From NCBI GenBank assembly GCA_963555825.3, contig CAUVXB020000001.1, positions 160,001-224,000 on the forward strand: DNA of 64,000 nt. The letters run 5' to 3'. The notes under the pieces were generated by a model. It was not told where the DNA came from. It was given only the letters and a program-made list of their open reading frames with translations, and ran no database searches. Positions 8,883-14,209 of this stretch are shown here, piece by piece. The stretch's first letter is position 1; each line of letters starts with the position of its first letter. The position numbers were made by a program, and so were the translations under genes. This stretch comes from Alphaproteobacteria bacterium (GTDB lineage Bacteria; Pseudomonadota; Alphaproteobacteria; JAAXGF01).

Positions 8883-9347
8883 ATGATCGAAGTCAACGGG
8901 ATGGCGCACGTCATACTCACCGTGAGCCAGTTCGACAAAGCCCGCGAATTCTATTCGGCGTTGTTGCCGTCCTTCGGCATGGAGCTGATCCACGACGGCG
9001 CCGACTTCTGCTATCACGTCGGCGGCCGGACGGCGATCGGCATCCGGCCTTGCGACGAGGAATGCGCCGGCGAACGTTTCAACCAGTTGCGCGTCGGCCT
9101 GCACCATATCTGCCTCAGGGCCCGTTCCCGCGAGGACGTCGACCAGGCCGGCGCCAAGGCGGCCGAACTCGGCGCCACGATCGTGCGCGGCCCGCAAGAC
9201 GGTGACTGGGCGCCGGGCTACTACTACGTGCTGTTCGAGGATCCCGACGGCATACGCCTCGAAGTGAATTTCGTTCCCGGGCAGGGCTTGTTGAAGAAAG
9301 GCGCGCGGTTCGATCCCGGGACCGGTTATGCCGCCGAGCCGGCCTGA
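8883..9347 (+). CDS. VOC (glyoxalase/bleomycin resistance) family protein
   Basis: HVILTVS, GLHHICLRA, YYVLFEDPDGIRLEV. Confidence 0.85.
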   Translation: MIEVNGMAHVILTVSQFDKAREFYSALLPSFGMELIHDGADFCYHVGGRTAIGIRPCDEECAGERFNQLRVGLHHICLRARSREDVDQAGAKAAELGATIVRGPQDGDWAPGYYYVLFEDPDGIRLEVNFVPGQGLLKKGARFDPGTGYAAEPA

Positions 9348-9595
9348 GGCCGCCGGCGCGCATATTCTCTCTGTCGCCGGACTTCGCGAGACGATAGGTA
9401 ATACCAAGGATCAGTGATAAAGACCCGTAGAGATCGCGTCCGCTTTTCGCCGGTGAGGCAAGGGAGCCGCGGGCGATGCAGCGCATCGGCTAGGCAACCT
9501 GACGCCCTCCAGCGATAAGCGGACGTGACCCGAAGGGCGGCGTGCCGAGGCTCCCGGACGTCGTTCCACCCATCTTGCGATGCCCCTCCTATTGC

Positions 9596-10187
9596 CATGT
9601 GTGGACGGCTCCCTGTTGGCAAGAGATTTTGTGACGTTGATGCAAGCTGGTCGGGTGCTGCCATGTGTCCGGCCTTTTGGTGCGGCGTACATGTGTGGAC
9701 GGCTCCCTGTTGGCAAGAGATTTTGTGACGTTGATGCAAGCTGGTCGGGTGCTGCCATGTGTCCGGCCTTTTGGTGCGGCGTACATGTGTGGACGGCTCC
9801 CTGTTGGCAAGAGATTTTGTGACGTTGATGCAAGCTGGTCGGGTGCTGCCATGTGTCCGGCCTTTTGGTGCGGCGTACATGGCCGCTGGCCCTAATGCGA
9901 TCCGCGGGGTCGGGTCCCATGTGTGGACGGCTCCCTGTTGGCAAGAGATTTTGTGACGTTGATGCAAGCTGGTCGGGTGCTGCCATGTGTCCGGCCTTTT
10001 GGTGCGGCGTACATGGCCGCTGGCCCTAATGCGATCCGCGGGGTCGGGTCCCATGTGTGGACGGCTCCCTGTTGGCAAGAGATTTTGTGACGTTGATGCA
10101 AGCTGGTCGGGTGCTGCCATGTGTCCGGCCTTTTGGTGCGGCGTACATGGCCGCTGGCCCTAATGCGATCCGCGGGGTCGGGTCCCA
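9596..10187. repeat. Tandem nested copies of the IS1111 right end, starting at 9596, 9690, 9784, 9918, 10052 (94, 94, 134, 134 bp, then full length)
   Basis: Each unit begins CATGTGTGGACGGCTCCCTGTTGGCAAGAG; copies look identical over shared lengths. Confidence 0.95.
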
Positions 10188-10308
10188 GTCATAAGCACGC
10201 GCTCGAGGCGCCGTGGCTATAGCGGGTTTTCCCGATCCTCGGTTCGACCGATTTTGCATTACGTCACTTACACTCCGCCAAACTCGTGAACGCCTTGTTT
10301 TCGTCGGC
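10052..10308 (-). ncRNA. Putative IS1111 bridge/seek RNA region
   Basis: Non-coding end after the transposase stop; contains segments matching the IS ends (ACACATG, CGCATTA) and the flank (CTATAGCCA); boundaries inferred. Confidence 0.6.
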
Positions 10309-11331
10309 CTAGGCCGTCGCGGGCCTGCGATAGGTTCCGCCATGTCTCAGAAGCGCCCAGGCAATGCGGGCGTTCTTGTTGGCCAGCGCCACGGCCGCGA
10401 CCTTGGTCGGCTTGTCGGCGATGATGTTGGCAAGCCATGGATCGGTCGTGCCGCGTCGCTTGGCGTGGCGGATGACCGTCATGGCGCCGGCGACCAGCAG
10501 CCAGCGCAGGTATTGATCGCCCTGCTTGGAGATCCGCCCCATGCGCTCCTTGCCACCGGTCGAGTTCTGTCTTGGCACCAGCCCGATCCAAGCGGCCATT
10601 GAGCGGCCCGATTTGAAGATCGACGGATTGGCAATCGAAGATGCCAGCGCGCTCGCCGTGATCGGTCCGATGCCGGGTGTGGTTTCGAGACGCAGGCTCT
10701 CTTCGTTCGTCCGGTGCCAGGCGTGGATACGCCTCTCAGCGCCGACGATCTCCCGCTCCAGCGACAGCAACTGCCGCGCCAGCCCTTCCAGGCAAGTCCG
10801 CGCCAGGGGCGGAATGCGCTCATCCGCCTCATCGCTGATCACCGCGAGCAGCTCCTTGACCTGCGGCAACCCGGTTCGCGCCACCACCCCGAACTCCGCC
10901 ATGTGCGCCCGCGTAGCGTTGACCAGCATGGTTCTCTGGCGGACCAGAAGCTCGCGCGTTCGGTGCAGCATCAGAACGCTCTGCTGCTCGACGCTCTTCA
11001 CCGCGACAAAGCGCATCGTCGGGCGCGTGACGGCCTCGCAAATAGCCTCCGCATCGGCAGCGTCATTCTTGTTCCGCTTCACGTAGGGCTTCACATAGCG
11101 CGGCGGCATCAGCTTGACCTCATGCCCAAGCGCCGCGATCTCCCGCGCCCAGTAATGCGCGGTCGCACATGCCTCCATACCAACCAGGCAGGGCGGCTGT
11201 TTCTCGAAGAAGGCCAGCACCTGACGCCGCCTCAACTGACGGCGGACGACCACGGTTCCCTCGGCGTCAACGCCATGCACCTGAAATACGTTCTTCGCAA
11301 GATCAACACCGATCGTGATAACTTCGTTCAT
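10309..11331 (-). CDS. IS110-family DEDD transposase/recombinase
   Basis: GVDLAK, MEAC, KNDAADA catalytic residues; QNSTGGK serine loop; ALANKNARIAWALL. Confidence 0.95.
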   Translation of the reverse strand: MNEVITIGVDLAKNVFQVHGVDAEGTVVVRRQLRRRQVLAFFEKQPPCLVGMEACATAHYWAREIAALGHEVKLMPPRYVKPYVKRNKNDAADAEAICEAVTRPTMRFVAVKSVEQQSVLMLHRTRELLVRQRTMLVNATRAHMAEFGVVARTGLPQVKELLAVISDEADERIPPLARTCLEGLARQLLSLEREIVGAERRIHAWHRTNEESLRLETTPGIGPITASALASSIANPSIFKSGRSMAAWIGLVPRQNSTGGKERMGRISKQGDQYLRWLLVAGAMTVIRHAKRRGTTDPWLANIIADKPTKVAAVALANKNARIAWALLRHGGTYRRPATA

Positions 11332-11551
11332 GGACGGCTCCTATTTCCCTGTGGTTCATCGAAACCACCATTTTGGCACCTAGATGCCTGCGGGTGGGAG
11401 CCGTCCACCGCATCATACATGGGCATCGCCGCGACGGGCGCGCCTAGCCGAGAACCACGGCAAGCCGTCTCTATGGGTCTTTATCACTGATCCTTGGTAT
11501 TAGCCGGCCGCGCGAGCGCGCCCGCGGCAGGCGGCCGACAGGGAGGAACAT

Positions 11552-12721
11552 ATGCCGGCATTCGAAGCGGCGGAGTATCGCGAGCGCCAGGCCAAGACCA
11601 AGGCGCGCATGGCGGCCGAAGGCGTCGATGTGTTGCTGGCCAGCGACCCGGCCAACATGTGTTACCTCTCGGGTTACGACGGCTGGTCATTCTACGTCCA
11701 CCAGCTGCTCGTCGTCGCGCTCGACGCCGACGAGCCGGTGTGGATCGGCCGCGGCATGGACGCGGGCGCCGCCAAGGTGACGACCTATCTCGCGCACGAC
11801 GAGATCCTGGGCTATCCGGACGACTATGTGCAGTCGACCGAGAAGCACCCGATGGACTACGTCGCCGGCGTGCTCGAGGCGCGCGGCTGGGGCGGTCTCC
11901 GTATCGGCGTCGAGATGGACGCCTACTATTTTACTGCCGCCTGTCTCGCCGCGCTCGAACGCAACCTGCCGAATGCCACGTTCGTCGATGCCACGGGGCT
12001 CGCCAACTGGGTGCGCATCGTCAAGTCGCCGGCCGAACTCGAATACATGCGGCGCGCCGCGCGCATCGTCGAGCGCGTCATGGCGACCGCCTTCGACGCC
12101 GTCAGCCCCGGCGTCAGACAGTGCGACGCGGCGGCGGCGATCTATCAGGCCGAGATCAGCGGCACGCCCGAGTTCGGCGGCGACTACACCTCGCTGGTGC
12201 CGATGCTGCCGTCCGGCGTCGGCACCTCGACGCCGCATCTCACCTGGACCGAAGATCCGTTCGTCGAGGGCGAGGCGACGATCCTCGAACTCGCCGGTTG
12301 CCACCGCCGCTACCACTGCCCGATGGCGCGTACCGTGTTCCTCGGCACGCCGCCCACCAAGATGGCCGACACCGCCGCGGTCGTCGTCGAGGGGCTCGAG
12401 GCGGCGCTCGACGCGGTCGAGCCGGGCATGACCGCCGAGGCGGTCGAGGCCGTCTGGCGCGCGACCATCGCGCGCCACGGTATCGTCAAGGATTCGCGCA
12501 TCGGCTACTCGACCGGTCTCAACTATCCGCCCGACTGGGGCGAGCACACGATCAGCCTGCGCCCCGGCGACAAGACGGTGCTCGAGCCGAACATGACGCT
12601 GCACATGATCCCCGGCGTCTGGTTCGACGACTGGGGCATCGAGATCAGCGAGTGCTTCCGCGTCACCGAAACGGGTGCGGAGCCGCTCGCCGACGTGCCG
12701 CGCGAACTGGTCGTCAAATAG
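11552..12721 (+). CDS. doeA: Ectoine hydrolase DoeA/EutD-like M24 peptidase
   Basis: DPANMCYLSGYDGWSFYVHQ, FGGDY, RYHCPMART, YPPDWGEHTISLR; GGAGG RBS. Confidence 0.8.
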   Translation: MPAFEAAEYRERQAKTKARMAAEGVDVLLASDPANMCYLSGYDGWSFYVHQLLVVALDADEPVWIGRGMDAGAAKVTTYLAHDEILGYPDDYVQSTEKHPMDYVAGVLEARGWGGLRIGVEMDAYYFTAACLAALERNLPNATFVDATGLANWVRIVKSPAELEYMRRAARIVERVMATAFDAVSPGVRQCDAAAAIYQAEISGTPEFGGDYTSLVPMLPSGVGTSTPHLTWTEDPFVEGEATILELAGCHRRYHCPMARTVFLGTPPTKMADTAAVVVEGLEAALDAVEPGMTAEAVEAVWRATIARHGIVKDSRIGYSTGLNYPPDWGEHTISLRPGDKTVLEPNMTLHMIPGVWFDDWGIEISECFRVTETGAEPLADVPRELVVK

Positions 12722-13001: not shown

Positions 13002-13283
13002 ATGACGAATCGACGCCGGTTTACGGCGGAATTCAAGGCCCGGGTGGCGCTGGAAGCGCTGCGGGGCGACAAGACGATCCAGCAGATCGCGGCCAAGCAC
13101 AAGGTGCATCCGAACCAGGTGAGCGCCTGGAAGCGCCAGGCGGTGGACGGTCTGGGCGAAGTGTTTTCGAACGGCGCCAACCGCGCTTGCCGGGATCATG
13201 AATCCGAGGTCCGCGACCTTCACGCCAAGATCGGCGAGCTGACGGTGGAACGGGATTTTTTAGCCAGAGGGCTCAAGCGATGA
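13002..13283 (+). CDS. IS3 OrfA (HTH)
   Basis: RRRFTAEFKARVALEAL...LHAKIGELTVERDFL. Confidence 0.9.
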   Translation: MTNRRRFTAEFKARVALEALRGDKTIQQIAAKHKVHPNQVSAWKRQAVDGLGEVFSNGANRACRDHESEVRDLHAKIGELTVERDFLARGLKR

Positions 13284-14209
13284 GCCGGGGGGAGCGCAAG
13301 GCGATGATCACACGCGACGCCCCCGAGCTGAGCTTGAGCCGTCAATGCCGCCTGCTTTCGATCGGCCGGTCCTCGTTCTATTATGCGCCCAGGGGGGAGA
13401 GCCCTTCGAGTCTGGCGCTGATGCGTCGGATCGACGAGTTGTTCATGAAGTACCCGTTCTACGGCAGCCGCCAGATGGTCCGCCAGTTGCGGCGGGACGG
13501 CGTTTGCGTCGGCCGTCACCGGGTTCGCAGGTTGATGCGATTGATAGGCCTGGAGGCGATCTATCAGGCGCCGAGAACCAGCGTGCCGCATCCCATGCAC
13601 CGGATTTATCCTTATCTTCTCAAAGGGATGGCTATCGACCAGCCCAATCGGGTCTGGTGCGCCGACATCACCTATATCCCCGTCCAGCGTGGCTTTCTGT
13701 ACCTGGTAGCGATCATGGACTGGGCGACGCGCCACGTTTTATCCTGGCGGCTGTCGAACACCATGGACGCTGGATTCTGCGCCGAGGCCTTGGGCGACGC
13801 GCTGGCCCGCTACGGCCAGCCGGAGATATTCAATACGGATCAGGGCAGCCAGTTCACCAGCCTCGACTTCACCGGCGTGCTCAAGAACGCGAGCATCCGC
13901 ATCTCCATGGACGGTCGGGGCCGCTGCATGGACAACATCTTCATCGAGCGCCTGTGGCGGTCTCTCAAGTATGAGGCGGTCTACCTACACGAGCTCACCG
14001 ACGGCTTCCACGCCGAACGGGTCATCGGCGAGTGGATCGGCTTCTACAACACCGAGCGGCCCCATTCGTCCCTCGACGGTCAAACGCCGGCCGAGGCCTA
14101 CGGGGCCGGTCAACCTGTGGATATGATGGACAAGGCTCGCGCCTTGCCCACATCCCCACAGGCTCAACAACAGCAACAGGATGTGATAAAAAGGATTTTG
14201 GCAGCATGA
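13280..14209 (+). CDS. IS3 OrfB (DDE integrase core)
   Basis: WCADITY, NTDQGSQF, DNIFIERLWRSLKYE; ATGA overlap with orfA. Confidence 0.95.
   Translation: MSRGERKAMITRDAPELSLSRQCRLLSIGRSSFYYAPRGESPSSLALMRRIDELFMKYPFYGSRQMVRQLRRDGVCVGRHRVRRLMRLIGLEAIYQAPRTSVPHPMHRIYPYLLKGMAIDQPNRVWCADITYIPVQRGFLYLVAIMDWATRHVLSWRLSNTMDAGFCAEALGDALARYGQPEIFNTDQGSQFTSLDFTGVLKNASIRISMDGRGRCMDNIFIERLWRSLKYEAVYLHELTDGFHAERVIGEWIGFYNTERPHSSLDGQTPAEAYGAGQPVDMMDKARALPTSPQAQQQQQDVIKRILAA

Follow-up and report, generated by a model that had tools for sequence, protein, structure and literature searches.

An IS1111-type insertion element in the 64,000-nucleotide window (the whole stretch of alphaproteobacterial DNA analysed here) carries, next to its resident right end (RE), four truncated tandem copies of that same end. 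The locus is a clear and unusually clean IS1111-type example of the left-donor (LD)-anchored expansion recently reported for IS110-family elements. What it adds is that, in an IS1111-type element, expansion creates extra copies of the donor-binding half of the guide RNA gene; since this gene adjoins the reactive end in such elements, a local expansion duplicates guide modules. In our view, the array is probably a product of the element's own RNA-guided DEDD recombinase, acting through one-sided joining at the RE terminus, with homologous expansion thereafter.

Results

The IS1111-type element and its insertion site

The element encodes a transposase with both domains of the DEDD transposases of the IS1111 group, namely PF02371 (E=7.9e-26) and PF01548 (E=1.7e-16), and its length of 340 aa lies within the 330-350 aa of that group. 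Read in transposase sense, the element runs TG-ATGCG-GTGGACGGCTCCC ... GGGAGCCGTCCAC-ACA-TG, with 13-bp subterminal inverted repeats (GTGGACGGCTCCC at 10057-10069, its complement at 11396-11408) and the left extension TGATGCG, which are kept in related elements, and with a long non-coding region of 257 nt downstream of the gene, from the stop codon (10309) to the terminus (10052). Subterminal inverted repeats, a 7-nt left extension and a downstream non-coding region are described as hallmarks of IS1111-type elements (PMC11187229). The initial annotation, made from the letters alone, had assigned the element to this type, with a guide RNA gene in the downstream non-coding region, and had counted one transposase and one left end. 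The domains, the ends, the 257-nt region and the covariation described below support the former, and the open reading frame at 10309..11331 and the left end at 11332-11415 are indeed the only ones. The element and its site comprise the following features:

9398..9595, no strand assigned: left half of a ~270-bp palindromic MITE-like repeat hit by the IS insertion (repeat search, paralogues)
9596..9597, no strand assigned: target core dinucleotide CA (TG in transposase sense) at the outer junction of array and flank (empty paralogue TTGCCA^TACATGG)
10052..10308, minus strand: resident right end and 257-nt non-coding region encoding a predicted seekRNA/bridge-type guide RNA (fold z = -2.5; consensus structure and guide covariation)
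10057..10069, no strand assigned: right subterminal inverted repeat GTGGACGGCTCCC, present in every unit (sequence)
10309..11331, minus strand: transposase, 340 aa, PF01548 (DEDD) and PF02371 (open reading frame; domain search)
11332..11415, minus strand: left end, present once only, with the inverted repeat at 11396-11408 and the 7-nt extension TGATGCG in transposase sense (sequence)
11416..11506, no strand assigned: right half of the ~270-bp MITE-like repeat (paralogues)

The insertion point is given by an empty paralogue of the target repeat, which reads ...TATTGCCA^TACATGG (in a longer reading, ...CCTATTGCCA^TACATGGGCATC...), and the element together with its array therefore occupies exactly 9598-11415. 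It is flanked by CA and TA, and no target duplication is seen. Comparison of the empty paralogue (TTGCCA^TACATGG) with the filled site points to site-specific insertion, and the targets of related elements share GTCCGCT..TG GC.. sequences. The core dinucleotide is CA on the plus strand of the window, which corresponds to TG in transposase sense. The MITE-like host repeat occurs in dozens of copies on both contigs of the genome, with 88-96% identity; its terminal inverted repeats read GGTAATACCAAGGATCAGTGATAAAGACCC..., and a central CCCCTCCTATTGCCATACATGG segment is missing from some copies. An IS3-family element lies 1.5 kb away (window 13002-14209), with an orfA carrying PF01527 and an overlapping orfB with an rve integrase core.

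Anatomy of the array

The array at 9596-10187 consists of units of 94, 94, 134 and 134 bp plus the resident RE, all 100% identical and arranged head to tail. TRF resolved it into a period of 94 at 9596-9881 (3.0 copies, 100% matches, no indels) and a period of 134 at 9784-10187 (3.0 copies, 100% matches), and a repeat search returned five in-register RE copies with start-to-start spacings of 94, 94, 134 and 134; both bear out the five copies of the terminus that had first been read from the letters. The copies begin exactly at the IS end, with CATGTGTGGACGGCTCCC, and the upstream ones are cut at an internal CA, as had likewise been noted: the 94-bp units close with the letters ...GGCGTA and the 134-bp units with ...GGGTCC, each followed by CA. 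Chance is excluded as a source of the array by the 100% identity over 94-134 bp. The units are:

9596..9689, minus strand: unit 1, the last 94 bp of the RE (LD guide, -35-like TTGCCA, subterminal inverted repeat, terminus) (sequence, TRF, repeat search)
9690..9783, minus strand: unit 2, 94 bp, identical to unit 1; at the junction GGCGTA is followed by CATGTGTGG, with CATG common with the terminus (sequence, TRF; 56-nt contig over the equivalent 9783/9784 junction in run X15)
9784..9917, minus strand: unit 3, the last 134 bp of the RE, covering the terminus and the whole donor-binding module with its RD guide, hairpin and LD guide, without target guides (sequence, TRF, covariation)
9918..10051, minus strand: unit 4, 134 bp, identical to unit 3; at the junction GGGTCC is followed by CATGTGTGG, with only CA common with the terminus (sequence, TRF; 57-nt contig over the 9917/9918 junction in run X16)

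Hu et al. define expansions by TRF as adjacent same-strand repeats with at least 95% identity, a unit of at least 50 bp and at least two copies. By this definition the array copies are LD-anchored expansions, with periods of 94 and 134 at 100% identity. At the unit boundaries the LD match is kept and the RD match is not, as each unit terminates in ...GTCCACACA-TG in transposase sense, and the units hold neither the left-end extension nor a second left repeat.

On the plus strand, and thus antisense to the transposase, every unit also contains a terminator-like hairpin with TTTT after it (9649-9674 and four equivalent places). Five such hairpins thus stand in series facing the upstream glyoxalase-family gene; the search found seven sites, versus 1.6 expected in shuffled sequences.

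Guide segments and the content of the units

An alignment was made of the final 200 nt from 34 distinct related elements, and guide covariation (n=33) delimited four segments:

10214..10222, minus strand: RT guide CUAUAGCCA, complement of the core and right target flank (self 6.79 vs non-self 4.85 of 9; 0/5000 permutations; 8/9 match to the locus's own right target flank)
10189..10197, minus strand: LT guide UGCUUAUGA, same sense as left target flank, core and A; its TG is the junction of the 138-bp unit at locus F (covariation)
10161..10167, minus strand: RD guide CGCAUUA, complement of the core and the left-end extension ATGCG (covariation)
10116..10124, minus strand: LD guide ACACAUGGC, same sense as right-end terminus, core and GC; its TG is the junction of the 66-bp unit at locus D (covariation)

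In the RNA, the order of the segments, numbered 1 to 4 below, is CUAUAGCCA, UGCUUAUGA, CGCAUUA and ACACAUGGC. Each of them matches its own DNA better than that of other elements, and none of 5000 permutations reached the observed mean (n=33), which, on the alignment, shows specificity of the predicted guides and not independence, the elements being mutually related. In the consensus fold, segments 1 and 2 lie in the internal loop of a stem with GC/AU/GU covariation, and segments 3 and 4 flank a conserved hairpin, a layout of target module followed by donor module with the top-strand match 5'. At the sequence level the arrangement is that of a seekRNA, as the predicted RT guide (complement of the top strand) lies 5' of the LT guide and both covary with the flanks. 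For structure we relied on the alignment, because single-sequence folds were of little help: the 149-nt end alone folds no better than shuffled sequences (z +1.41), and the minimum-energy fold of the 257-nt region (z -2.5) pairs the two core-containing segments with each other. An Rfam scan of 9000-12000 at E<=1 gave two chance-level hits (E 0.2) and no curated family for the guide RNA.

The covariation among the 33 elements agrees with the content first proposed for the two unit sizes, namely that the 134-bp units hold both donor segments and stop before the target ones, and that the 94-bp units hold one. The start of the 134-bp unit lies 4 nt after segment 2, which leaves a complete donor module and no target guide, and that of the 94-bp unit lies in the hairpin loop, which leaves only the LD guide (segment 4). 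Two of the partner sites used elsewhere in the genome are TGs within guide-coding DNA, 138 bp (segment 2) and 66 bp (segment 4) from the end, a coincidence that is not significant given that 6/13 nearby TGs are used.

Arrays at other copies in the genome

The genome (G000; two contigs, C1 and C2, 6.04 Mb) holds six full or near-full copies of the element, A to F, with A being the present locus. Identity to A is at least 99.9% for copies B, C, D and F and 97% for E; A, B, C, D and F have an intact transposase reading frame. RE-anchored arrays are present at A, B, D and F and absent from C and E. No left-end array was found at any of the six copies, and two related IS types in the same genome (RE ~80% and 74% identical) have single ends only.

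Seven unit periods occur in these arrays, i.e. 24, 66, 94, 134, 138, 296 and 872 bp. The terminus motif has 42 exact occurrences in the genome, and in 20 of them it is preceded by at least 10 nt of IS-internal sequence, which always ends in CA. All seven junction types are on TG in transposase sense, a dinucleotide that accounts for 7% of dinucleotide positions, and six of the 13 TGs within the last 300 nt are in use. The homology with the terminus amounts to 2 nt at four sites (24, 134, 296 and 872), 3 nt at 138, 4 nt at 94 and 7 nt at 66. Outward from the IS body the units are ordered 134, 134, 94, 94 in A and 872, 66, 66, 66 in D, with the larger units nearest the body, and both of these arrays are clean. 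The outer 134- and 94-bp units are common to A and B. Arrays B and F also hold mosaic, non-anchored stretches (C1:2233957-2234568 and C2:2098552-2099650) in which short RE pieces are out of order or interleaved; some resemble two interleaved registers, and the mosaic parts may be real decay or scrambling, or consensus noise. At B, the first 27 nt of the resident copy are missing.

Further rearrangements involve the same ends. Copy E (C2:1504945-1506304) has an RE that is 100% identical to the other copies over 300 bp, together with a left end (ATGCT) and a target (TG-ACCCAGG) typical of the related IS type at C2:2409230, and judged by its sequence looks like a recombinant of two IS types. At C2:525380/525397 and C2:1017016/1017033, the REs of two different IS1111-type elements stand head to head a few bases apart (...GTCCACACATAGC meeting CATGTGTGGAC...), where the end and flank of one element seem to have served as the target of the other. 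A solo RE copy, diverged (88%), without transposase and with an internal deletion, lies at C2:2633437-2633510 and ~20 nt beyond; its start coincides with the TG at which the 134-bp unit begins, and it may represent a donor module that either moved or remained behind on its own.

Arrays in other genomes

Eighty public loci with relatives of the transposase (60-84% identity) were all scanned by TRF, 78 of them with at least 400 nt downstream of the gene. A tandem repeat with a period of at least 15, beginning at most 250 nt past the gene end, was found at four of the 80 (L088, L121, L124 and L071); repeats farther downstream, as at L108, L126 and L127, fall outside this count. At L088, whose protein is 67% identical, a 98-bp unit is present twice and joined as ...GTCCACACA-TG-GATCAGC; its internal site, GGCCAGCGGCCA-TG-GATC (CCA-TG), is the orthologue of the 94-bp site, and only one end is present at L063, a sister copy within that MAG. 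One MAG contributes two loci whose flanks differ, L121 and L124, at both of which an identical 192/193-bp unit occurs twice, with joints from the terminus to an internal TG. The repeat at L071 is a 62-bp duplication at the stop codon and is not anchored at the terminus.

Core-joined end arrays of the kind for which the initial annotation had proposed a survey are present at four of the six copies in G000 and, among the 80 loci, at L088 and L121/L124. Junctions unrelated to the core, which would have spoken against the reading given there, were not found among the terminus-anchored types, since 9/9 across three genomes (seven in G000, two elsewhere) are on TG. A repeat at L077 (5547-5795) was considered as a further RE array and rejected, as it is a coding repeat outside the IS. 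At L077:5200-5270, an inverted piece of the element's own RE repeat (GGCCAG-TGTGGACGGCTCCGA) stands in place of the donor module, which is a rearrangement of another type affecting the same hairpin. Sixty relatives of G000, searched with 300 bp of the RE, gave 13 matches and no adjacent hits on one contig; most of these assemblies consist of hundreds of contigs, and no other member of the genus of G000 is among them.

Discussion

Origin of the array

We infer that the joints were catalysed by the element's recombinase. In the course of events that we hold to be probable, the enzyme would recognise and cleave the right-end terminus, i.e. the left-donor half-site ...CCACACA-TG, and would join it to a nearby internal TG of the same element or of a sister copy instead of the left end, its partner in normal excision. 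Every one-sided 'half-match' event of this sort would add one copy of the segment between TG and terminus, here starting from the TGs 94 and 134 bp from the end; the number of identical units could subsequently grow through unequal homologous crossing-over or if the event recurred. As the guide RNA gene of IS1111-type elements adjoins the reactive end, the added units would be pieces of that gene, and elements bearing an array could transpose as a whole. Possible routes are exchange between sisters, cis strand transfer resolved by replication, or self-insertion of a full circle with homologous deletion; the origin may lie in cis, between sisters or during copy-out replication.

Several observations argue for recombinase action rather than slippage, the view already taken in the initial annotation, namely the anchoring at the terminus, the core dinucleotide at all joints, the restriction to the RE and the minimal homology at most joints. 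Anchored, core-exact junctions make up 7/7 types here and 2/2 elsewhere, four of the seven with 2 nt of homology. The ordered arrays A and D fit repeated use of the IS-proximal terminus without target flank, i.e. recognition of the donor half-site alone. Movement of array-bearing elements as a whole is suggested by the outer 134+94 units common to A and B, and by the identical duplication found at both L121 and L124.

Several findings stand against one-sided joining by the recombinase. The partner sites share little beyond TG; the 66- and 94-bp junctions, with 7 and 4 nt in common, could arise by microhomology alone; and the mosaic, non-anchored stretches in arrays B and F are outside its reach. 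In addition, two of the four read sets compared gave no junction contig among the pieces listed, the relatives searched, mostly fragmented assemblies, had no arrays, and neither had the two related IS types of G000. With respect to the first of these, three of the seven used sites resemble target or donor half-sites at five or more of seven positions, compared with 6/93 TG sites (P=0.005, by a score devised post hoc; P=0.07 within the last 300 nt), so that mimicry of half-sites by the partner sites is a trend only. DNA stiffness makes very small double-stranded circles implausible, and on this ground we rejected re-integration of unit-sized double-stranded circles as physically implausible for the 24-, 66- and 94-bp units.

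A different route, which we regard as unlikely but as the foremost alternative, is self-insertion, in which an excised full IS circle would insert at a TG pseudo-target in the resident RE and RecA-type recombination would then remove one of the two bodies, leaving a terminal duplicate of d bp. The array would in this case still be made by the recombinase, through its normal insertion reaction. Self-insertion yields exactly the observed junction (terminus, TG, internal sequence) for any d, including 24 and 872 bp; moreover, the TG 138 bp from the end, in the DNA of the LT guide, copies the left target flank and core, and the 296-bp site resembles the 138-bp site at 5/7 positions. However, most sites are without any match to the right target flank, and no unresolved intermediate, with two full bodies and a partial end between them, is present among the six copies. 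Self-insertion further predicts neither the ordered unit sizes nor the absence of inverted insertions at CA sites.

Possible functions of the units

It can also be imagined that the array is kept because it is useful, as a source of donor-module-only RNAs, through additional excision ends or by insulating the element from outside transcription, which we consider doubtful. The 134-bp unit is a complete donor-binding module, each unit has its plus-strand terminator-like hairpin, and array-bearing elements seem to move (L121 and L124 in one MAG; the outer 134+94 units of A and B). In addition, donor-only (DBL-DBL) complexes are reported to suffice for IS621 excision in vitro (10.64898/2026.08.31.748434). 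On the other hand, no promoter-like site is found in the array, the unit sizes range from 24 to 872 bp across loci, as would be expected of by-products, and copies C and E do without arrays. The absence of promoters also bears on the stacked outward TTGCCA -35 boxes that had been put forward as a possible effect of the array. A scan of 9300-11600 returned no sigma-70-like site, and this proposal was abandoned. The hexamer following the TTGCCA box is CATGTA or CATGGG at the array joints, compared with the CATGAT that a circle junction would give.

More specifically, the 134-bp units might be transcribed by read-through from the transposase and processed to donor-loop-only RNAs that load into the recombinase, with the extra units serving as extra usable REs, a scenario to which we give little credence. 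If it were true, the array could raise the copy-out rate, which is proposed because donor-only complexes suffice for IS621 excision, or, as a decoy, it could lower insertion, and the length of the array, made by the element itself and inherited, would set the activity of an RNA-guided transposon like a dial. Expression of the modules would matter for how bridge/seek-RNA editors are designed and for their off-target behaviour. Without such expression, the arrays would be by-products that can confuse IS annotation and short-read assembly.

Slippage, read support and assembly

Replication slippage or duplication by microhomology without the recombinase, followed by unequal crossing-over, is in our estimate very unlikely as the source of the arrays. 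In its favour are the 66- and 94-bp junctions, which share 7 and 4 nt with the terminus, and the related locus L071, where a 62-bp tandem duplication did form away from the terminus; homology-driven expansion is moreover to be expected once a duplicate exists. However, slippage cannot set the position of the joints where only 2 nt of homology are available, as is the case at four of the seven sizes in G000, and nine duplication sizes in three genomes all start from the exact IS terminus, with nothing comparable at the left end or in the transposase gene.

Read support for the array is partial. Twenty public runs from eight studies, none of them RNA runs, match part of window 8900-10400; they are stored as contigs built from 31-mers, and four of the 20 were compared over 9740-9960. 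In run X15, a 56-nt contig crosses the 94-bp junction without differences (26+30 nt), and a joint equal to the 66-bp junction type is also present. In run X16, from a different study, a 57-nt contig crosses the 134-bp junction, again without differences (28+29 nt), and a loose end reads into the flank of locus D. These junction contigs are shorter than the 31+31 bridging rule, yet have the maximal length for junction-specific 31-mer paths within the repeat. Among the pieces listed, X1 and X3 gave no junction contig, and none of the listed pieces spans the whole stretch. X15 may be the assembly's own source.

That the array is an artefact of assembly or consensus and the true locus has a single RE is the least probable of the readings, and we regard it as highly improbable. 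In its favour, the interleaved mosaics in B and F resemble a consensus from misregistered reads, the pieces listed do not span the whole stretch and the best-matching run may be the source of the assembly itself. Against it, arrays A and D are clean and 100% identical, the X15 and X16 junction contigs from two studies show no differences, and analogous duplications occur in unrelated assemblies.

Relation to known systems

The initial annotation had put the array forward as its best candidate for an undescribed phenomenon. This is not supported, as the kind was reported for the IS110 family at large in August 2026 (Hu, Xie, Yang, Rubin, bioRxiv; 10.64898/2026.08.14.744561). Hu et al. describe non-coding units repeated in tandem next to transposases of the IS110 family (n=468); at the unit boundaries, left-donor (RE) matches are almost the only ones retained, and the authors suggest LD-initiated reactions resolved in place (10.64898/2026.08.14.744561). 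The present locus is like theirs in having tandem non-coding units next to a PF01548+PF02371 transposase, an LD and not an RD match at the boundaries, and a reading in terms of one-sided half-matches (10.64898/2026.08.14.744561). It differs in that the units, which are at least 50 bp in Hu et al., are here nested truncations of one terminus with sizes of 24-872 bp and with every joint at the core dinucleotide, and in that they carry the donor-binding half of the guide RNA gene, which is LD-side in IS1111-type elements. The words 'IS1111' and 'seekRNA' do not occur in the text of Hu et al., the figures (4B/E) and supplements of which may include IS1111-type cases (10.64898/2026.08.14.744561). 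A literature search of article texts returned no paper on RE arrays or guide-module duplication in IS1111-type elements.

Another related system is ISPpu9 with ssr9 in Pseudomonas putida KT2440, an IS110-family system in which a downstream small-RNA module is likewise present in extra copies (PMC12288879). The ISPpu9 transposase is described to recombine alternative combinations of ends at the core dinucleotide AG, the corresponding dinucleotide of the present element being TG (PMC12288879). Each ssr9 module has two boxes, one left-type (A') and one right-type (B'), and the modules form minicircles and occupy separate loci, whereas the units described here are right ends only, arranged head to tail (PMC12288879). 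They start at arbitrary internal TGs and are without left-end sequence, and thus do not have the two end boxes of an ISPpu9-type module.

With ISEc11, ISPa11 and ISKpn4, the element shares a DEDD transposase of 330-350 aa, subterminal inverted repeats, a 7-nt left extension and the lack of target duplication, as well as a downstream non-coding RNA, here a predicted one, in which the top-strand match lies 5' of the bottom-strand match (PMC11187229). In the text on these three elements no end arrays are described, and the present donor guides differ in having been mapped by covariation alone and not by RNA sequencing (PMC11187229).

The bridge RNA of IS621 is similar in being a guide of two modules (target loop and donor loop), in the exchange at a core dinucleotide and in reactions that use donor half-sites only (PMC13626964; 10.64898/2026.08.31.748434). 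IS621 encodes its RNA upstream of the gene, whereas the predicted guide RNA of the present element is encoded downstream. According to a preprint by Xie et al. (2026), IS621 requires no more than the donor half-sites for its excision, in which a single strand is released (10.64898/2026.08.31.748434). The half-match mechanism has been demonstrated for IS621 and CazIS110, and not for any IS1111-type element (10.64898/2026.08.31.748434). If the arrays arose by one-sided joining as proposed, the locus would be a clean natural record of 'half-match' reactions by an RNA-guided recombinase, with seven nested sizes in one genome and on the LD side only. As such, it would extend to the IS1111 branch the support for the asymmetry reported in 2026 in the IS110 family, and it provides a defined set of partner sites for biochemical tests.
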